Below, one piece after another: positions 3,089-59,429 of a stretch of 64,000 bases of DNA; the stretch's first letter is position 1, and the number at the start of each line of letters is the position of its first letter. The notes under the pieces were generated by a model. It was not told the DNA's origin, did no database searches, and saw only the letters and a list, made by a program, of their open reading frames with translations. Source of the stretch: Gallionella sp. (lineage in GTDB: Bacteria > Pseudomonadota > Gammaproteobacteria > Burkholderiales > Gallionellaceae); assembly GCA_035529795.1 (NCBI GenBank), contig DATKVZ010000034.1, positions 92,547-156,546 on the forward strand. The letters run 5' to 3'. A program made the position numbers and the translations under genes.

Positions 3089-3140
3089 CCGGATTATTTG
3101 TCAGCGCATGGCCTTTCCGGCATAATTCACCCGCCGTTCA

Positions 3141-3323
3141 GACCAATGGGAGAGCGTGTCAGCCAGCGTCGTTTCAACGACCCTGACACCGCCGAAGGCG
3201 CAACACCCGCAACCGCTCAGGCTCACGAACTATTGGTACAGGCAAATCTGGAGAGCGTTGGATTACCAACCACCGAAGGGGCACACAACGCGAGTTGTAA
3301 TCTCTCAGGTACCAAAGACAGAT
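3141..3323 (+). ncRNA. Tandem glycine riboswitch (two aptamers)
   Basis: Two GGAGAG...CCGAAGG.GCA...CTCAGG units (about 3141-3237 and 3245-3323) directly upstream of gcvT. Confidence 0.92.
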
Positions 3324-3326
3324 GGG

Positions 3327-3359
3327 GCGCAGCGCAGTTGCGCTGCGTCTTTTTCTTTT
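3327..3359 (+). terminator. Intrinsic terminator-like expression platform of the glycine riboswitch
   Basis: gcgcagcgc-agtt-gcgctgcgt stem followed by a T-rich tract, 13 nt before the gcvT ATG. Confidence 0.65.
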
Positions 3360-3372
3360 CCGGAAAATTGAC

Positions 3373-4461
3373 ATGACACTCAAGCAAACTCCGCTCAATG
3401 CAGCACACCGCACAATGGGCGCGAAGATGGTCGATTTCGGCGGCTGGGACATGCCGGTGAACTACGGTTCGCAAATCGACGAACATCATCAGGTACGCAA
3501 CGACTGCGGCATGTTTGATGTATCACACATGCGCACATTGGACATTAAGGGTAAGGGGGTACGCGACTTTTTGCGTTATTTGCTGGCGAACAACGCCAAC
3601 AAACTCACTACACCCGGCAAGGCACTGTATTCCTGCATGCTGAGCCCGGACGGTGGCGTGATCGACGATCTCATTATTTACTTCATGAGCGAACAGTGGT
3701 TCCGCATCGTGGTCAATGCGGGCACGGCGGACAAGGACATCGCGTGGATGAGGCAGCAGGCGGCACAGCATGCGCCGCAGCTCGCCATCATCTCGCGTGA
3801 CGACTTGGCGATGGTCGCGGTGCAGGGGCCGAATGCGCGCGCCAGGGTATGGCAAGTGCTGCCAGAGACCCGTACGGCTACCGAAGGTTTGCAGAACTTC
3901 CAGGCTACCGATTGCGGCGAATATTTCATTGCGCGCACCGGTTACACCGGTGAAGACGGCTTCGAAATCATGCTACCAAAAGAAAAAGTGGAGGGACTCT
4001 GGCACGCGCTGAACAAGGCGGGTGTAAAACCCATTGGCCTTGGCGCGCGCGATACGCTGCGCCTCGAAGCAGGTATGAATTTGTACGGGCAGGATATGGA
4101 CGAAAGCGTCGGACCGCTTGAATCCGGCCTTGCGTGGACGGTGGACCTGCAGAGTGAGCGCGACTTCATCGGCAAGGCCGCCCTGCTCGCCAACCCGCCA
4201 ACCCGCAAGCTGGTCGGGCTGGTGTTGCTGGATCGCGGGATACTGCGCGGCCACCAGCGTGTGCATACCGCGCACGGCGAAGGCGAGATTACCAGTGGCA
4301 GTTTTTCGCCCACTCTGGAAAAATCCATCGCGCTGGCGCGTGTGCCGAAAGAAGTACAGGTCGGCGACCAGGTACAGGTGGCGATTCGCGATAAAATGCT
4401 GGCGGCAAAAGTGGTGAAGTATCCGTTCGTGCGCAATGGGAAAGCAGTCGTTAGCGGTTAG
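3373..4461 (+). CDS. gcvT: Glycine cleavage aminomethyltransferase T
   Basis: [40 protein letters not shown]. Confidence 0.97.
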
Positions 4462-4484: not shown

Positions 4485-4531
4485 CAACTAACAACTAACA
4501 ACTAACAACTAACAACTAACAACTAACAACT
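4485..4531 (+). repeat. Heptamer tandem repeat (CAACTAA) x6.7
   Basis: Six perfect units plus CAACT, abutting the gcvH RBS (GGAGA 4532-4536). Confidence 0.95.
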
Positions 4532-4541
4532 GGAGATTCAA

Positions 4542-4935: not shown

Positions 4936-5064
4936 AGTAGTTATTAGACGTAAGTTGTTAGTCAAATCCGCGAGCGGACTACACCAACTAACTACTATTA
5001 TGTAACAACTACTTCGCACAACTTTTATTTTTAACTTCCGACTAACGTCTAGCAACTACCAACT
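4936..5064. repeat. Inverted degenerate heptamer-repeat element
   Basis: Left arm gtagtta-ttagacg-taagttg-ttagtc is complementary to right arm gactaa-cgtctag-caactac (one unit fewer). Confidence 0.7.
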
Positions 5065-5069
5065 GCCCC

Positions 5070-6581
5070 ATGCCCTTTATCCCCCACACCGAGCAAGATA
5101 TTACAGCGATGCTCGCCAGCATCGGCGCAAAAGATATCAACACGCTGTTCGATGAAATTCCTGCCGCGCTGAAAAGCGGCAAGCTCACTGCTATTGGTGA
5201 CGGCCTGAACGAGATGCAGGTATCGCGCCTGATGCATGAACGTGCCGCGCAGGATAGCCAACCGCTCAATTTCATTGGCGCGGGTGCCTACGAGCACCAC
5301 ATCCCCGCTGCTGTCTGGGAAATCGTCACGCGCGGTGAGTATTACACCGCCTACACACCGTATCAGGCCGAGGCCAGCCAGGGCACACTGCAAACGCTGT
5401 ACGAGTACCAGACCATGATCGCGTCGTTGACCGGTATGGATGCATCCAATGCCAGCCTTTATGACGGCGCATCCGGCTTGGCAGAAGCGATCCTGATGGC
5501 GGTGCGCGCGCACAAGACTTCGCGCCGTGTGTTGCTGCCCGCCACCGTCAGCCCGCTGTATCGCAGCGTGGTGCGCAGCATCGTCAAATTGCAAAACATC
5601 GAACTGATAGAAATCCCGTTCGATCCCACCACCGGTACTATTGATCTCAAGGCGCTGCAACAATACGCCGGCAGCGACCTTGCCGCACTAGTCATCCCGC
5701 AGCCGAATTTTTTCGGCGCATTGGAAGATGTCGATGCGCTGACCGACTGGGTGCACGCACAAAATGCGCTGGCGGTCGCTTTGGTCAATCCGGTTTCGCT
5801 CGCTCTGCTGAAAGCGCCGGGTAACTGGGGAAGCCCCTCTCCTCAATCCTCTGATAAAACAACTAGCCATTTGACTACGCCTGCAAGCGGGCAAGTCACT
5901 GGTTATCCCGCAGGCGGGAGAGGAGGCGAACGTGAAGTGGGGCAAGCAGGTATTTTGTCGCAAGACAAAAACTCGCAAAATCAATTGTTGATTCCCGGCG
6001 CGGATATCGCGGTCGGCGACGGTCAGCCGCTCGGCGCGCCACTGTCCAGCGGTGGCCCGTATTTCGGCTTCATGTGCTGCAAGCAGGCGCTGGTGCGCCA
6101 GATGCCGGGGCGCATCATCGGTCGCACCGTGGATATGGATGGCAAGCCGGGCTTCACGCTGACGCTACAGGCCCGCGAGCAGCACATCCGCCGCGCCAAG
6201 GCGACTTCCAATATTTGCAGCAACCAGGGATTGATGGTGGCTGCAGCCACCATTCACATGGCATTGCTCGGTGCAGACGGTCTGCGCCGCGTCGCCGCAA
6301 CGTCATATACCAACACACAAACACTGCTGGAAAAATTGTGCGCCATCCCCGGTGTAAAACCGGCGTTTGGCACACCCAGTTTCCACGAGGCGGTAGTGCA
6401 ATTACCCAAACCAGCCGCCGCAGTATTGGCTAGAATGGAAGCGCAGGATGTGCTTGGTGGCTATGATCTTTCCACGCACTATCCGCAATTGGGCAATGCG
6501 ATTCTGGTATGCGCTACCGAAACCAAAACGGTGGCCGACCTGCAACGCTGTGCCGACACACTGCAATCTGTCCTCAACTAA
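5070..6581 (+). CDS. gcvPA: Glycine decarboxylase subunit 1 with ~55-aa insertion
   Basis: [26 protein letters not shown]; 503 aa. Confidence 0.95.
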
Positions 6582-7103: not shown

Positions 7104-7190
7104 CGTCATTCCCGCGCAGGCGGGAATTCAGCAGTATAAAAATGCTTTTTTGTTTAAACCTATTAGATTCCCGCCTGCGCGGGAATGGCG
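7104..7190. repeat. Inverted pair of ATTCCC-N8-GGGAAT (dRS3-like) palindromes
   Basis: attcccgcgcaggcgggaat (7108-7127) and attcccgcctgcgcgggaat (7167-7186). Confidence 0.85.
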
Positions 7191-11208: not shown

Positions 11209-11357
11209 TTGGTATCTCCTGTGGTTTAACAAAACAACGGTTTCATCTTATCAATTTGCCGTGCGGCGCGCTACCAACCTGAATGGCCTCCAACTATCCC
11301 AAACTCCGGCGCTATCGGTTAAGCTTACACTCGTCTTCAATTCACCGCACAAACACT

Positions 11358-13022
11358 ATGGCACAGTATGTAATGTCGATGCACCGCGTGAGCAAAGTCG
11401 TTCCGCCCAAGCGTCAGATCATCAAGGATATCTCCCTCAGTTTTTTCCCCGGTGCCAAGATCGGTCTGCTCGGCCTGAACGGCTCGGGCAAGTCCACCGT
11501 GCTGCGCATCATGGCAGGCGTGGACAAGGAATACGACGGCGAGGTACAGCGCCAGCCGAACATTCGCATCGGCTACCTTGAGCAGGAGCCGCAGCTTGAT
11601 CCGGACAAAACCGTGCGCGAGGAAGTGGAATCCGCCCTGGGTGAAGTGATGCAGGCACAGACTAAACTCGACGAGGTGTATGCAGCCTACGCCGAAGAGA
11701 GCGCCGACTTCGACGCGCTGGCCGCCGAGCAAGCGCGTCTTGAGGCAATCATTGCCGCCAGCGGCGCGGATTCCGAGCACCAGATGGAAATTGCAGCCGA
11801 CGCGCTGCGTCTGCCGGATTGGGATGCCGTCATCAAAAATCTTTCCGGCGGCGAGAAGCGCCGCGTCGCCCTGTGCAAGCTGCTGTTGGAAAAACCCGAC
11901 ATGCTGCTGCTCGACGAACCGACCAACCACCTCGATGCGGAGTCGGTGGAATGGCTAGAGCAATTCCTGGTGCGCTTCCCCGGTACCGTCGTCGCCGTCA
12001 CCCACGACCGTTACTTCCTCGACAATGCCGCCGAATGGATACTGGAACTGGATCGCGGTCGCGGCATCCCGTGGAAGGGTAACTACTCGAGCTGGCTGGA
12101 GCAGAAGGAAGCGCGCCTCGAGACCGAGAACAAACAAATCGACGCACACATGAAGTCGATGAAGCAGGAGCTCGAATGGGTGCGCCAGAGCCCCAAGGCG
12201 CGCCAGGCAAAATCCAAGGCGCGTCTGAACCGCTTCGAGGAACTCAATTCGCAGGAATACCAGAAGCGCAACGAGACGCAGGAAATCTTCATCCCGGTCG
12301 GCGAGCGCCTCGGCAACGAAGTCATCGAATTCAACGACGTTTCCAAAGCCTACGGCGACCGCCTGCTGATCGACAACCTCAGCTTCAAGGTGCCTCCCGG
12401 CGCCATCGTCGGCATCATCGGCCCGAACGGTGCCGGTAAATCCACACTGTTCAAGCTGATCACCGGCAAGGAGCAGCCGGATTCCGGCGAAGTGAAGATC
12501 GGCTCGACCGTCAAGATCGCGCACGTCGATCAGGCACGCGATTCGCTGCAGAACGACAAGACCGTATTCGATGCCATCTCCGGCGGCAACGACATCCTCA
12601 CCGTGGGCAAATACGAAACTTCGTCGCGCGCCTACATCGGCCGCTTCAACTTCAAGGGTGGCGATCAGGCCAAGATCGTCGGCCAACTTTCCGGCGGCGA
12701 GCGCGGCCGCCTGCATCTGGCGCAGACCCTGATCTCCGGTGGCAATGTGCTGTTGCTCGATGAACCCTCCAACGACCTCGACGTGGAAACCCTGCGCGCG
12801 TTGGAAGACGCGCTGCTCGAATTCGCCGGCTGTGTGATGGTCATCTCACACGACCGCTGGTTTCTCGACCGCATCGCCACGCACATCCTCGCGGCGGAGG
12901 GTGATTCGAAGTGGACGTTCTTCGATGGCAACTATCAGGAATATGAGGCGGACAAGAGGAAGCGTTTGGGCGAGGAAGGCGCGAAGCCGAAGCGGATTCG
13001 GTATAAGCCGATTAGTCGGTAA
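11358..13022 (+). CDS. ettA: ABC-F translational throttle EttA
   Basis: MAQYV..M; two Walker A / LSGGE / LDEP sets; 554 aa. Confidence 0.95.
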
Positions 13023-13031
13023 ATACATCAA

Positions 13032-13128
13032 CTCCCTCTCCCGCTCGCGGGATAACCAGCGACTTGGTCGCCGTATTGGGGCGGCCTAGTCGAATGGCTA
13101 GTAGTTCTATCAGAGGGTTGGGGAGAGT
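13032..13128 (-). repeat. Composite CCCTCTCCC-family palindrome with nested GATA...TATC core
   Basis: Reverse complement aligns along its length with 5834-5926 inside gcvPA. Confidence 0.85.
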
Positions 13129-13132
13129 GGAT

Positions 13133-13261
13133 GTGAGCAATTCAACACAAAGCAAACGCATCGTCATCATCGCCGGGCCGAACGGTGCAGGGAAAACGAC
13201 TTTCGCGCGCGAATTTTTGCCGGCAGATGCATCGTTGCCCAACTTTGTGAATGCTGATTGA
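13133..13261 (+). pseudogene. Zeta-toxin/AAA-like P-loop protein fragment
   Basis: [21 protein letters not shown]...FVNAD then stop; only the N-terminal ~42 aa remain. Confidence 0.75.
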
Positions 13262-16576: not shown

Positions 16577-17146
16577 ATGCCAATTAACCAAGCGAACAGT
16601 CGCAAATTCCAGTCCGGCAACCTGATACTGGTGGGTATGATGGGTTCCGGAAAGACCACTATCGGGCGAATGCTGGCCAAGCATCTGGACAAGGTATTTG
16701 TGGATAGTGATGCTGAAATTCAGCAGCGCACCGGCGTGACCATCACGCATATATTCGATATCGAAGGTGAGGCCGGTTTTCGCCAGCGCGAGACTGCCGC
16801 CCTTTGCGATTTGGTCGGACGCAGCAGCATGGTTTTGGGGACGGGCGGCGGTGCGGTACTGGTGGAGCAAAACCAAACAATGCTGCAACAGAATGGCATC
16901 GTCATTTACCTGAGGGCGAGTGTGCATGATTTGTGGCAGCGTACCCGGCATGACCGCAATCGTCCGCTGCTGCAAACTGCGGATCCGCATGCAAAATTGA
17001 CCGAGCTACACCATCAGCGCGACCCGCTTTATCAGAAGGTTGCGGATATTGTTATCCAGACCGGCAGGCAAAGTGCGCATACCCTGGTGCTGCATTTAGT
17101 AAGTGAAATAGAGGCCTTCATTTCACGCAGGTCGGATCAAGCGTAG
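16577..17146 (+). CDS. aroK: Shikimate kinase
   Basis: LVGMMGSGKTT, EGEAGFR, TGGG, RPLL; start uncertain. Confidence 0.93.
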   Translation: MPINQANSRKFQSGNLILVGMMGSGKTTIGRMLAKHLDKVFVDSDAEIQQRTGVTITHIFDIEGEAGFRQRETAALCDLVGRSSMVLGTGGGAVLVEQNQTMLQQNGIVIYLRASVHDLWQRTRHDRNRPLLQTADPHAKLTELHHQRDPLYQKVADIVIQTGRQSAHTLVLHLVSEIEAFISRRSDQA

Positions 17147-17206
17147 CGATCCGACGAACTTGGTAGCGGGATTATTTGTCGGATCGCTACGCTTGATCCG
17201 GCCTAC
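17127..17206. repeat. GTAG-type REP doublet (REPIN-like) overlapping the aroK stop
   Basis: gcaggtcggatcaagcgtagcgatccgac and its near-perfect inverse gtcggatcgctacgcttgatccggcctac. Confidence 0.85.
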
Positions 17207-17224
17207 AGAAAATTGACTGGAAAG

Positions 17225-36045: not shown

Positions 36046-36071
36046 CATGGAACACGCGCAGCGTTCGTTTG

Positions 36072-36110
36072 CCTCCTCTCCCGCATGCGGGAGAGGATTG
36101 AGGTGAGGGA
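36072..36110. repeat. CCCTCTCCC-family palindrome (intergenic)
   Basis: cctctcccgc-at-gcgggagagg + attgaggtgaggg tail. Confidence 0.85.
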
Positions 36111-43589: not shown

Positions 43590-43650
43590 CCCTCACCCGC
43601 CCTGTCGGGCACCCTCTCCCGCTTGCGGGAGAGGGGATGGGGAGAGGGGG
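43590..43650. repeat. CCCTCTCCC-family palindrome (intergenic), close relative of the prmC insert
   Basis: ccctcaccc-gccctgtcgggc-accctctcccgcttgcgggagagggg-atggggagaggg. Confidence 0.9.
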
Positions 43651-44790: not shown

Positions 44791-44864
44791 GCGGGTGTAG
44801 TTCAATGGTAGAACGGCAGCTTCCCAAGCTGCATACGACGGTTCGATCCCGTTCACCCGCTCCA
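44791..44864 (+). tRNA. tRNA-Gly (CCC)
   Basis: 74-nt cloverleaf, anticodon arm GCAGC-TTCCCAA-GCTGC, CCA end. Confidence 0.97.
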
Positions 44865-45426: not shown

Positions 45427-45491
45427 TCTCGCTCCAGTTCTCGCACCGTTTTTCGGAGAGGGGGTGGCCGCGAGGCTGCCTCCTTACCCTC

Positions 45492-45527
45492 CTGCATACG
45501 ACGGTTCGATCCCGTTCACCCGCTCCA
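45492..45527 (+). repeat. Exact 36-bp copy of the tRNA-Gly 3' end (attR-like)
   Basis: ctgcatacgacggttcgatcccgttcacccgctcca, identical to 44829-44864. Confidence 0.97.
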
Positions 45528-57131: not shown

Positions 57132-59429
57132 TTACTTGATACGCATACCCGGTTGCGCGCCCTCGTCCGGGCCGAGAATGAACAACCCCGGTGTTTCACC
57201 GGAAGCCGCCAGCACCATGCCTTCGGACAGACCAAACTTCATCTTGCGCGGTGCAAGATTGGCGACCATCACCGTCATGCGGCCCTTGAGTTGTTCCGGA
57301 TCATAAACCGACTTGATACCTGCGAACACGGTGCGCGGTTTTTCTTCGCCGATGTCCAGCGTCAGTTTTAACAGTTTGTCCGCGCCTTCCACATGTTCCG
57401 CGTTGACGATTTTCGCCACGCGCAGGTCAATCTTGCTGAAGTCATCGATGGAGATGGTTTCGGCGATGGGGCTAATATTCTTCCCCTCTCCCGCTGGCGG
57501 GAGAGGGGCTAGGGGAGAGGGTGCGTGCTGCTGGTGTTCGGCATGGCGTTGCGGGGAGTGTGATTCGGTCATGGGTTTCAGACTTTCCTGGTTGGCGGCG
57601 ACCATGGCCTCGATCAGTTTGGGATCAAGACGGGTCATAAGATGTTGGTAGGGGTTGATGGTGTGATCCTGCAACAGTGTTTGAGCATCACCCCACTGAA
57701 GTGGTGAAATATTCAGGAAAGATTCTACGCTTTCAGCCAATTTTGGCAGCACCGGCTTGAGGTACAAAGTAAGCAGGCGAAAAGCATTAAGTGCAATTGA
57801 ACAGCCGATATGGATTCTGGCTGAGTTCTCTTCAAAATTCTTCGCCAATGTCCACGGTGCCAACCGGTCAACATAAGTGTTGCACATATCGGTTAGTTCC
57901 ATGATGCGCCTGATGGCTTTGGCAAAATCCCGTTGCTCATAAATTTCAGCCAATTGAAATGCGCTATCCTGTAACTCGGGGAGCAAATCAACCAAGGTCA
58001 ATTCACCGGGAAGCCGGATGGCTTCATTGATGAGCATTTGCTCGTTCATGTTTATCAAATCACCGATTGCGGCAGTTTTGTCAGCATCTCCGAGTTGCTC
58101 TTTAAGCCAGTGATCTACCAGTACAGTCGACAGTTTTCCATCAAAACGCTTTGCTATAAACCCCGCGCACCGGCTCGCAATATTGATATATTTCCCGATC
58201 AGATCGCTATTCACTCTCGCCACAAAATCTTCGAGATTGAGGTCGATGTCCTCCATCGTGCCATTTAGTTTGGCCGCATAGTAGTAGCGCAAATATTCAG
58301 TGTTGCCGATGTGATCGATGTAGCTGCGCGCGGTGATGAAGGTACCCCGCGATTTGCTCATCTTTTCGCCGTTCACGGTGAGGAAGCCGTGCGCGAACAA
58401 TTTGGTCGGGGTGCGAAAGCCGGCGTGTTGCAACATCGCCGGCCAAAACAGCGCGTGGAAATACAGAATATCCTTGCCGATGAAGTGGTACAGCTCGGTA
58501 CCAGAACCTTGTTTCCAGTAGTCGTCGAAAACCAACCCCTCCCCAGCCCTCCCCTTGCCTGCGATCTCCTCCCCTGACAAGGGGAGGTCGGGAGGGGTTT
58601 GCTTGTTGCACAGTTGTTTGAAACTGCCCATGTAACCGACCGGCGCATCCAGCCATACGTAAAAATATTTACCCGGTGCGTCGGGGATTTCGAAGCCAAA
58701 ATAAGGTGCGTCGCGCGAGATGTCCCAGTCGGAAAGCTTGTTTTCGCCTTCCGCTCCCAGCCACTCCTGCATCTTGTTCGCGGCCTCGGGTTGCAGCGTG
58801 CCGCTGCGTGTCCATTCGCGCAGAAATTTCTGGCAGCGCGGATCGGAGAGTTTGAAGAAATAATGGTCGGAATTGCGCCGCTCCGGCTGCGCACCGGACA
58901 CGGCTGAATACGGGTTGATCAGTTCGGTGGGCGCATAAGTCGCACCGCATGCTTCGCAGTTGTCGCCGTACTGGTCTTTGGCGTGGCACTTCGGACATTC
59001 GCCCTTGATGAAACGATCCGGCAGGAACATTTGCTTGGCCGGGTCGTAGAACTGCTCGATAGAGCGTACCTCGATCAACTTTGCCTCGTCCCTGAGCCTG
59101 AGATAAATCTGTTCGGCAAACTCGCGGGTTTCGTCTGAATGAGTGGAGCCGTAGTGGTCGAATTCGACATGGAATGCGGCAAAATCGGCCTGGTGCTCTT
59201 CAGCAACCCGCGCGATCAGTTGCTCCGGCGTGATGCCTTCCTTTTCGGCGCGCAGCATGATCGGTGTACCGTGGGTATCGTCGGCGCACACATAATGACA
59301 GGTGGTATCGGCCTGCATTTTCTGGAAGCGCACCCAGATGTCGGTCTGGATATATTCGACCAGATGGCCGAGATGGATACTGCCGTTGGCATAGGGCAGC
59401 GCAGAGGTGACGAGGATTTTGCGGCTCAT
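57132..59429 (-). CDS. metG: Methionyl-tRNA synthetase with three insertions
   Basis: PYANG..HLGH, Zn knuckle, KMSKS, C-terminal tRNA-binding domain; 765 aa. Confidence 0.97.

Follow-up and report, generated by a model that had tools for sequence, protein, structure and literature searches.

The extra 53-55 residues of GcvPA in Gallionella sp. are three selfish DNA repeats, one nested in another. One of the three, a short hairpin element that we call the core, is a variant of REP/MITE-like elements and belongs to a family in iron-oxidising Gallionellaceae that is apparently undescribed. Our literature search found no paper describing it, in keeping with the earlier note on this DNA, which knew of no description. 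We are highly confident of the descriptive account of the core and its nest given here: a discrete unit, a YT target, a preference for hairpins, a defined structure and in-frame copies in real proteins. The DNA analysed is a single stretch of 64,000 nucleotides, referred to throughout as the window, and the palindromic repeat that carries the core within it is called the host.

The insert in GcvPA

The gcvPA coding sequence (positions 5070-6581, + strand; 503 aa, PF02347 family) carries the insert, and its translation places SPSPQSS...QNQLLIP between NWG and GADIAVG. The entire inserted block, at 5835-5996 (+ strand), is 162 nt long and in frame, and was delimited by protein alignment and by DNA alignment with empty, host-only, host-plus-core and host-plus-third-piece alleles. 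The empty allele has a single AAG codon where the block stands, which makes the net gain 53 aa. An in-frame insert here had been read from the sequence alone in the earlier note, and the ORF translation and both alignments bear this out; the limits of 5832-5996 and the size of 55 aa given there were slightly generous against the empty allele. That note had also suggested a protein search for such inserts, and among the best 120 GcvPA homologues 36 carry inserts at this one site, while the block is missing from 82, which are ~450 aa long. In a sequence alignment with Thermus thermophilus GcvPA (1WYT), the two flanks of the insert are contiguous; the AlphaFold2 model of the 503-aa protein (mean pLDDT 48.6) was unusable. 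We think it probable that small non-autonomous repeat elements, nested in three layers, make up the insert, which lies in a loop that tolerates extra residues.

DNA alignment of five gcvPA alleles gave exact junctions for all three layers, one more than the earlier note had separated. The first, 66 nt long, belongs to a REP/MITE-like family of palindromic host repeats (CCCTCTCC..CTCTCCCGCnnGCGGGAGAGG..) and lies on the + strand in three parts: a left arm at 5835-5852 (CCCTCTCCTCAATCCTCT), placed by the allele alignment and by an empty host copy at 36066-36108, an inner palindrome with the 3' arm at 5907-5936 (CCCGCAGGCGGGAGAGGAGGCGAACGTGAA) and a tail at 5979-5996 (AATCAATTGTTGATTCCC), both placed by the allele alignment. 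The second layer, at 5853-5906 (+ strand; GATAAAACAACTAGCCATTTGACT...AAGTCACTGGTTAT), is a 54-nt member of the 54-60-nt single-hairpin core family; it is recognised by a covariance model (57.0 bits), the family alignment and covariation, and its middle stem has a compensatory T-A where C-G is usual. The third is a 42-nt piece at 5937-5978 (+ strand; GTGGGGCAAGCAGGTATTTTGTCGCAAGACAAAAACTCGCAA), seen in the allele alignment, with end positions uncertain by ~2 nt and a TTTTGTC-GCAA-GACAAAA hairpin. This piece is confined to one point of the host tail, which is the same at other loci.

The gcvPA site exists with no insert, with host only, with host plus core, with host plus third piece and with core in core, and the loop must therefore have been hit repeatedly. 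These alleles uphold the suggestion that a separate small element is nested in a palindromic host. The third piece is in the alleles of the window and of locus L120 and is absent from L121 and L122. Host subtype 2 in gcvPA occupies a different reading frame, which implies an independent host insertion. In one allele the core lies at CCCT^CTCCCGC, two nucleotides from its place in the window, and another holds three nested cores, after ACTACT^AGCC and CGACT^AAGC. Core-in-core nesting also occurs in L047 and L023, where a reading as truncated tandem units was rejected, the cores being nested after ACT^AGCC.

Copies elsewhere in the window

The covariance model finds exactly two cores in the 64 kb (79.8 and 57.0 bits), the next score being 14.7 bits. 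The better-scoring copy is of the 60-nt form and lies at 13052-13111 on the - strand. It has the stop codon of an ABC-F ATPase gene (11283-13022) on one side and a short P-loop ORF on the other, and is antisense to both genes. Host palindrome arms at 13032-13051 and 13112-13130 surround it, and the inverted-match alignment defines an intergenic composite at 13032-13130 (- strand). Positions 5834-5923 match the reverse complement of 13035-13130 in two blocks, of 48 nt at 85% and 37 nt at 86% identity, which are the longest inverted matches within the window. The reverse-complement copy that had been placed near 13032-13128 is thus confirmed by alignment and by the covariance model. The hairpin core reported with it also stands, at lengths of 54 and 60 nt rather than 55-61 nt.

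Both cores interrupt the host palindrome at CCTCT^CCCGC, as had been seen, and the corresponding empty junction is present in the window: the copy at 36066-36108 (- strand), identified through inverted matches, is of the same host subtype and has an uninterrupted CCTCT-CCCGC junction (CCTCACCTCAATCCTCT-CCCGCATGCGGGAGAGGAGGCAAACG). Three further host-family palindromes lie in the window. One is in frame in prmC (2522-2577, + strand; LSRLRERG), one is in frame in the metG linker (57462-57517, - strand; PLPPAGEG), at the junction of the anticodon-binding and tRNA-binding domains, and one is close downstream of thiG (43590-43645).

The core family and its contexts

Beyond the window, the core occurs in at least 125 copies in at least 119 genome stretches, all from Gallionellaceae-type MAGs, and the covariance model scores 128 matches in 0.7 Mb of core-bearing loci. 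The possibility, allowed by the earlier note, that there are only the two copies in the window and that they derive from one local duplication therefore fails. Approximately 43 of 124 copies lie in the gcvPA-type host family, at the two alternative positions CCTCT^CCCGC and CCCT^CTCCCGC. The search for free and nested copies placed the remainder in other cores, in unique non-repeat DNA, and in six or more further recurrent contexts that include several palindromic repeat families, so the proposal that the core specifically targets the host family is not supported. Composites of host and third piece, and of host, core and third piece, recur at other, non-gcvPA loci.

Some 40% of cores (49 of 119) are within open frames of at least 200 codons. 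Real proteins that carry them in frame include a pseudouridine synthase, a radical-SAM protein, a GDSL lipase and CpoB; the in-frame survivors are copies whose length is divisible by three, and the reading frame of the core differs from protein to protein. Only two core matches were found in 2.9 million viral contigs, and a link to phages was rejected. The core is not a known Rfam element: it has no match at the gathering threshold in the window, and a permissive search returned only a chance-level lncRNA at the site (E = 1). Cores are transcribed, as metatranscriptome contigs cover the core of L075 and the sequence is very abundant there; these are contigs, in which RNA ends and processing are unreadable.

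Ends, targets and structure of the core

The core is a discrete insertion unit with the exact ends GATGRAAC...CTGGTTAT. Integration is directly 3' of YT, which is CT in about three quarters of the copies and TT in about one quarter. Of the 125 5' flanks, 93 have C and 31 have T at position -2, and 104 have T at position -1, the rest being mostly copies with a tail 1 nt longer; overall, the left junction is YT in 124 of 125. The right junction is AT (TTAT^S), and the 3' flank is variable. Flank logos and comparisons of empty and filled sites show no target duplication at ~125 junctions. One metagenome contig represents an allele that is short of exactly one 60-nt core.

Reconstituted empty sites have a mean folding energy of -18.5 kcal/mol, against -14.6 kcal/mol for random YT^S sites (p = 9e-13). 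The core junction falls in a 5' arm in 57 cases, in a loop in 43 and in a 3' arm in 13, where the controls give 292, 292 and 303, and the contrast between the arms is strong (Fisher's test, p = 2e-7). These target statistics are inflated because many core copies, from orthologous loci or within composites, are not independent events. What core sites have in common is a YT^ that lies within a hairpin, in its 5' arm or its loop.

The hairpin of the core, for which a covariance model had also been suggested beforehand, has compensatory change in 14 of 18 pairs; 95% of alignment cells are paired, and none of 500 shuffles reaches the observed value. Compensatory changes thus appear to maintain the hairpin. 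This covariation could instead reflect several master copies rather than selection in place. The structure is strand-specific, with a G·T wobble kept in 64 of 66 sequences and a TT/C internal loop, and it has an unpaired 10-nt tail at the 5' end and none at the 3' end. The motif at its foot is CTAG; the search pattern fixed these letters, but matches of the covariance model also keep TAG.

How the core may move

In the best-supported mechanism, which we advance tentatively and by analogy, the core would travel in single-stranded form, with an HUH/Y1 tyrosine enzyme (RAYT or IS200/IS605 type) acting in trans to cut and rejoin it. [quoted passage not shown] The CTAG at the foot of the core hairpin would be the equivalent of this guide, with A3 and G4 picking the CT cleavage site, or TT via G·T. 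Gene conversion between host copies is a probable further route by which the nested forms spread and become homogeneous. Two features of the core run against the analogy, namely a foot that is CTAG rather than GTAG and a right end cut after AT rather than CT.

At least one core-bearing genome, a Nitrosomonadales MAG (L045), has a Y1_Tnp gene, found as a single match to E. coli RayT by tblastn. This RAYT-like gene was rejected as the partner of the core: it is flanked by a different, GTAG-type REP, and the L045 core merely lies inside one such REP, of a family which the window lacks and the loci rarely contain. The ~0.9 Mb of DNA around the cores shows no recurrent linkage to a Y1 or any other transposase gene. 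All-against-all clustering of the ORFs of 119 loci gave housekeeping families only, and where cores occur in pairs (L071, L080, L001 and L024), housekeeping genes account for the ORFs that separate them. A search for a longer, autonomous element found orphan half-sites that are chance matches or one core split by another repeat. IS200/IS605 elements have a lagging-strand bias; cores are oriented 63:56 relative to GC skew and 64:55 relative to gene direction, which is no bias, in 8-kb windows that make for a weak test.

A somewhat unlikely alternative is that the composite is the spreading unit, moving as a block or by short-patch gene conversion between hosts, and that no insertion is aimed at the host. 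The orientation of the core relative to the asymmetric host flanks is constant in nearly all nested copies (L043 is the one exception), host plus third piece and the triple composite are found at several non-gcvPA loci, and insert DNA is 89-93% identical between alleles against 57-63% at third codon positions, so that it is conserved far above the surrounding synonymous sites, as concerted evolution predicts. Against this, about two thirds of the cores are outside the host family, the two insertion points in the same host are 2 nt apart and both follow CT, cores lie inside cores, and gcvPA alleles with the same host differ only in the presence of the core or the third piece. The earlier note had offered a composite spreading as a unit; this is plausible for some copies, those that recur at other loci, and leaves the cores outside hosts unexplained. 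Composite spread or gene conversion probably contributes without being the whole story.

It is less likely, though worth stating, that the core represents a new class of single-strand mobile element that goes from hairpin into hairpin by an activity other than that of a RAYT or an IS200/IS605 transposase. The agent might be an unrecognised nuclease, HUH or other, or host replication or repair might act on extruded hairpins without a dedicated transposase. To our knowledge, the dissemination of REPs is otherwise poorly understood, and if such a class is real, the insertion record of the core, which combines YT^ sites in a 5' arm or loop, nesting in its own kind and survival in frame, would be the first clean target rule for the dissemination of REP-class repeats.

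That the core is instead kept for a function of its own, as an RNA motif, a processing or stability signal or a peptide module, and was spread by selection is very unlikely. The strand-specific hairpin, with a conserved G·T that would be G·U in RNA, the abundance of the sequence in metatranscriptome contigs and the 37 sense against 12 antisense cores in long ORFs are what one might expect of it. The sense excess, however, is near the expectation from open frames (two sense frames against one antisense; p = 0.23 against 2:1), cores occur in both orientations relative to genes, the second copy in the window being antisense to both neighbours, they are translated in different frames in different proteins, and no Rfam family matches. 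We also rejected a hammerhead or C-box reading of CUGAUGA: its CU comes from the target flank, there is no stem II, and Rfam has no match.

Classical transposition fares worse. The core is small, present in many copies and symmetrical as a hairpin, and its termini are GAT...ATC-like, all of which recalls a MITE, a deletion derivative of a DDE-type IS moved via terminal inverted repeats, but we consider this highly improbable given ~125 junctions free of target-site duplication, the asymmetric ends and the failure to find a longer element with the same ends in the loci. No more credible is another site-specific recombination, whether bridge-RNA guided, of IS110/IS1111 type, or integron attC-like. 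IS1111/IS110-family elements do use REP palindromes as landing sites without target duplication, and the core resembles attC in its conserved basal stems, internal loop and variable terminal stem-loop. Yet its very different target contexts share only YT rather than a 10-14-nt programmed site, the core dinucleotide, CT at the left junction, is not repeated at the right (...TTAT^S), and the hairpin lies wholly inside the unit, between YT^G and TTAT^S, whereas attC is split at G^TT. Finally, a chimeric MAG assembly or mis-joined repeat can practically be dismissed: the sources are all metagenome assemblies and repeats attract misassembly, but contigs from six or more independent metagenome runs contain the intact insert, reading frames stay open, and related alleles occur in many independent assemblies.

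Relation to known repeats

Like the REPs of REP/RAYT systems, the core is a short, abundant, imperfect hairpin with a conserved motif at its 5' foot, a strand-specific structure and a mismatch or bulge in the stem; its left junction, mostly CT, is consistent with the dinucleotide at which TnpA_REP cuts single-stranded DNA (PMC3479197, PMC8266576). It departs from them in that its foot shares only the A3 and G4 positions with GTAG, and in its greater length (54-60 nt) and conserved 10-nt 5' tail. REPs are extragenic, whereas ~40% of cores are in long ORFs; cores also have exact ends with clean empty and filled sites, and, in contrast to a REPtron, no RAYT gene flanked by cores was found within the fetched loci. 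The core resembles IS200/IS605 elements and PATEs in that it enters 3' of a short, 5'-only target with no duplication and, presumptively, in recognising hairpins and in using a single-strand mechanism. The core nevertheless has one hairpin where these have separate left-end and right-end hairpins, its target is 2 nt where that of IS200/IS605 is 4-5 nt, and it has no TnpA or TnpB gene nearby and no replication-strand bias detectable by the weak 8-kb test. The ISs that target REPs are kilobase-sized, autonomous and directed to long specific targets, and the core, in contrast, is non-coding and requires no more than a YT in the arm or loop of a hairpin.

A parallel for the in-frame copies is the RPEs of Rickettsia, selfish palindromes that lie in frame in unrelated housekeeping genes and are tolerated as extra peptide (PMC10969869), a likeness in way of working rather than a claim of homology. 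Here the unrelated proteins with in-frame palindromes are GcvPA, PrmC and MetG in the window, besides those that carry cores elsewhere. RPEs are ~100-150 bp long, belong to a different phylum and have not been reported nested, whereas three layers nest here and the same loop has been hit repeatedly. The RPEs are thus joined by a second, independent example of selfish repeats that persist in frame within enzymes of core metabolism, with up to three or four layers nested and one GcvPA loop hit again and again across environmentally important iron oxidisers. More than 100 junctions of the core family have exact ends, and alongside them stand matched empty and filled alleles, a single host with two alternative insertion points, and elements nested in elements. 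A target rule, YT^ within a hairpin's 5' arm or loop, follows directly from this record and lends itself to testing in vitro. For the annotation of Gallionellaceae MAGs there is a practical consequence, as the repeats make annotated proteins longer, cause breaks in assemblies and can lead homology-based annotation astray.

The gcvPA insert is a nest of three layers

Translation of the ORF at 5070-6581 gives a GcvPA of 503 aa in which SPSPQSS...QNQLLIP splits NWG from the next conserved segment. No inverted matches in the 64-kb window are longer than 5834-5881/13083-13130 (48 nt, 85%) and 5887-5923/13035-13071 (37 nt, 86%), which link this insert to a second copy near 13 kb, and pairwise alignment shows that the two have identical architecture. 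These observations bear out the earlier note, which described a composite element that encodes a 55-aa insert in GcvPA and recurs at 13032-13128. An assembly artefact is ruled out because at least six independent metagenome runs yielded contigs in which the insert is intact, without skipping joints.

We mapped the junctions by aligning the window to the DNA of four gcvPA alleles from related genomes, which are empty (L123), host-only (L122), host plus core (L121) and host plus third piece (L120). The alignment resolves a host left arm (5835-5852), the 54-nt core (5853-5906), the host inner palindrome and 3' arm (5907-5936), a 42-nt third piece with a TTTTGTC-GCAA-GACAAAA hairpin (5937-5978) and the host tail (5979-5996), and so the insert is a nest of three layers rather than two. 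Where the whole block stands, the empty allele has one AAG codon. GcvT has inserts of its own in L120 (1236-2417) and L121 (1161-2435), of 31 and 62 aa at one site; GcvT of the window has none.

The host is a palindromic REP/MITE-like repeat. The window holds six copies of its palindrome CTCTCCCGCnnGCGGGAGAG, where chance would give 0.03, and an uninterrupted copy of the gcvPA subtype, CCTCACCTCAATCCTCT-CCCGCATGCGGGAGAGGAGGCAAACG, lies at 36066-36108. Palindromes of the host family are also found in frame in prmC (2522-2577, encoding LSRLRERG) and in metG (57462-57517, PLPPAGEG), the latter in the linker between the anticodon-binding and C-terminal tRNA-binding domains of methionyl-tRNA synthetase (57132-59429, minus strand). 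The prmC orthologue in L123 has a shorter version at the equivalent place.

Gallionellaceae/Nitrosomonadales metagenome-assembled genomes supply all of the best 120 GcvPA homologues; 82 are ~450 aa long and 36 reach 465 aa or more. In the protein alignment the extra length is confined to a single site, between WG[GAS] and GADIAVG, and the segments flanking this site are contiguous in the solved Thermus thermophilus subunit (1WYT). Host repeats of two subtypes occur in gcvPA; they are read in different frames and their junctions differ by 1-2 nt, so the host repeat must have entered this loop at least twice. The site is either an insertion target or the sole place in GcvPA where insertions survive. 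Between gcvPA alleles the insert DNA is 89-93% identical, compared with 80% in the remaining sequence and 57-63% at third codon positions (Fisher p = 4.5e-11). This suggests that the insert was acquired recently or repeatedly, that it was converted by copies elsewhere, or that constraint acts on its DNA.

Searching metagenomes for the 19-nt hairpin of the third piece gave 41 matches in 39 stretches. Thirteen contain all 42 nt, invariably at one point of the host tail (GAACGWGAA^...^A..CAAT); these thirteen span at least six contexts other than gcvPA, and a core lies upstream in four or five of the thirteen. The third piece is absent from the 123 genome loci L001-L123. Two readings fit: a variant of the host with a long tail, or a third element specific for this host-tail point. 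Since the triple composite also exists outside gcvPA, the suggestion that the composite spreads as a unit gains partial support.

The core is a separate hairpin unit that lies after YT

A gapped pattern run on one-genome-per-species bacterial contigs matched the core in at least 119 stretches, and no Rfam family matched it. The matches listed come exclusively from Gallionella, Sideroxydans, Ferrigenium and unnamed relatives; 2.9 million viral contigs held only two. Flanks of 125 listed copies define the unit as GATGRAACWA-CTAGCCATTCGACT-(variable GC stem and A-rich loop)-AAGTCGCTGGTTAT, in length classes of 60, 59 or 54 nt. Among these 125 copies the base at -2 is C in 93 and T in 31, and the base at -1 is T in 104, the exceptions being mostly copies with a tail one G longer; the 3' flank is variable, and none has a target duplication.

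About 43 of 124 listed copies are inserted in the CCCTCTCC...GGGAGAGG host family, at either of two points 2 nt apart, CCTCT^CCCGC and CCCT^CTCCCGC, both after CT, and removing the core at either point regains an intact host. The other listed copies lie in at least six further recurrent contexts or in unique DNA. One such context is the ATTCCCGCCT^GCGCGGGAAT palindrome family, which is present in the window at 7104-7190; there, at the gcvPB start, an inverted pair of CGTCATTCCCGCGCAGGCGGGAAT palindromes (7104-7127 and 7167-7190) represents this REP family, which hosts cores in other genomes.

Cores also nest in one another. In L169, a 529-aa GcvPA allele, a canonical 54-nt core is broken twice by other cores, at ACTACT^AGCC and CGACT^AAGC, and the ACT^AGCC nesting is also seen in the genome loci L047 and L023. 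A ~125-nt repeat of the TTCGTGCTGAGC.../GTCGAAGCAC family breaks a core of L030 (3021-3300, minus strand) after CCACTA, so nesting among repeat families runs both ways. The core is a discrete, self-nesting unit with exact ends and without coding capacity.

Some 40% of copies are located within open frames of 200 codons or more, and Pfam-confirmed proteins around them include a pseudouridine synthase, a radical-SAM protein, a GDSL lipase and CpoB. Rickettsia palindromic elements likewise persist in frame within housekeeping genes (PMC10969869). For the core-bearing ORF of L075, a metagenome contig has an allele without exactly the 60-nt core; because the adjacent codon differs and the flanks carry SNPs, we take this for a DNA allele from another strain rather than for RNA excision.

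We rebuilt empty sites by removing the core, joining 30 nt of flank per side and folding the product, with YT^S sites drawn at random from the same loci as controls. Rebuilt sites fold more stably (mean -18.5 versus -14.6 kcal/mol; Mann-Whitney p = 9e-13). The junction falls in the 5' arm of an inner helix in 57 cores (292 controls), in the hairpin loop in 43 (292) and in the 3' arm in 13 (303); the contrast between arms has a Fisher p of 2e-7, in a set that includes orthologous loci and copied composites, so that the 124 events are not all independent. Insertion is after YT, without target duplication, and favours hairpin loops and 5' arms. Of the proposal that a second tiny element targets the host, the separate element stands but the specific aim does not, as YT in hairpins generally is the target.

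Structure and possible mechanism

In 64 full-length copies the apical stem has 87 cells in which both sides have changed, where 27 would be expected (none of 500 shuffles as high), and all slid controls collapse. A model-derived alignment including diverged copies has compensatory change in 14 of 18 pairs, with 95% of cells paired; the gcvPA core of the window is itself an example, with a compensatory change from C-G to T-A. A basal-stem G·T wobble is retained in 64 of 66 sequences of that alignment, and this, with an asymmetric TT/C internal loop, indicates that the structure forms on one strand only and that the core therefore acts as single-stranded DNA or RNA.

A role at the transcript level is disfavoured, because cores have no orientation bias relative to GC skew (63:56) or neighbouring genes (64:55), and the second core of the window (13052-13111) is antisense to the genes on both sides. 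Cores inside ORFs are sense in 37 cases and antisense in 12, near what open frames of both orientations permit. In metatranscriptome contigs of runs X25 and X30, word depth over the L075 core (4357-4416) is 10-100 times that of its flanks, so core-bearing RNAs are abundant in those communities.

The core differs from DDE-derived MITEs in having no target-site duplication, from PATEs in having one hairpin only, from integron attC sites in its unsplit hairpin and from IS110-type insertions in the lack of a long target. It resembles REPs and IS200/IS605 miniature elements in its hairpin, 5' target and absence of duplication but, unlike REPs, has a foot without GTAG, is not restricted to extragenic DNA and has no REPtron. 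We found no paper in the literature searched on the core sequence, or on REPs or MITEs in Gallionellaceae. The core is an apparently undescribed variant of REP/MITE-like elements whose natural insertion record is unusually informative. Our confidence in the descriptive account of the core is high.

By analogy, a trans-acting HUH/Y1 enzyme might cut and join the core as a single strand. [quoted passage not shown] CTAG at the core foot retains A3 and G4, and the left junction, CT or TT, would match A-T plus G-C or G·T pairing with them. Against this, the foot motif is CTAG rather than GTAG, the right junction is AT, cores show no strand bias, and no Y1 gene is linked to cores in the examined loci, the sole Y1_Tnp near a core (in L045) belonging to a different GTAG-REP family. 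We consider this enzyme class a tentative assignment that could easily be wrong. The L045 gene (6506-7084, minus strand) is RAYT-like, lies between GTAGGGGCGATTCACGAATCGCCC REPs and has an in-frame REP doublet in its own coding sequence; the L045 core is inserted in the loop of the downstream GTAGGGGCGATTCACGAATCGCCC REP.

Other features of the window

The gcv operon has the expected tandem glycine riboswitch, with two aptamers, 5' of gcvT (3137-3327). CAACTAA heptamer repeats are found in the gcvT-gcvH spacer (4485-4533), and a related 66-nt segment, 71% identical and 500 nt away, lies in the gcvH-gcvPA spacer (4946-5011). The N-terminus of the 516-aa gcvPB call is probably over-extended, since homologues have 483 aa. 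Directly downstream of the intergenic composite, a short P-loop ORF (GPNGAGKTT; 13132-13261) ends prematurely, perhaps as a truncated gene for an ATPase or kinase. A large, near-perfect palindrome of a separate repeat type lies at 17120-17213 (39-nt arms, 85% complementary, 16-nt spacer). A tRNA gene (44791-44861) has its 3' part duplicated 663 nt downstream with 91% identity (44820-44864 and 45483-45527), resembling the scar that a small integrated element would leave at its attachment site.
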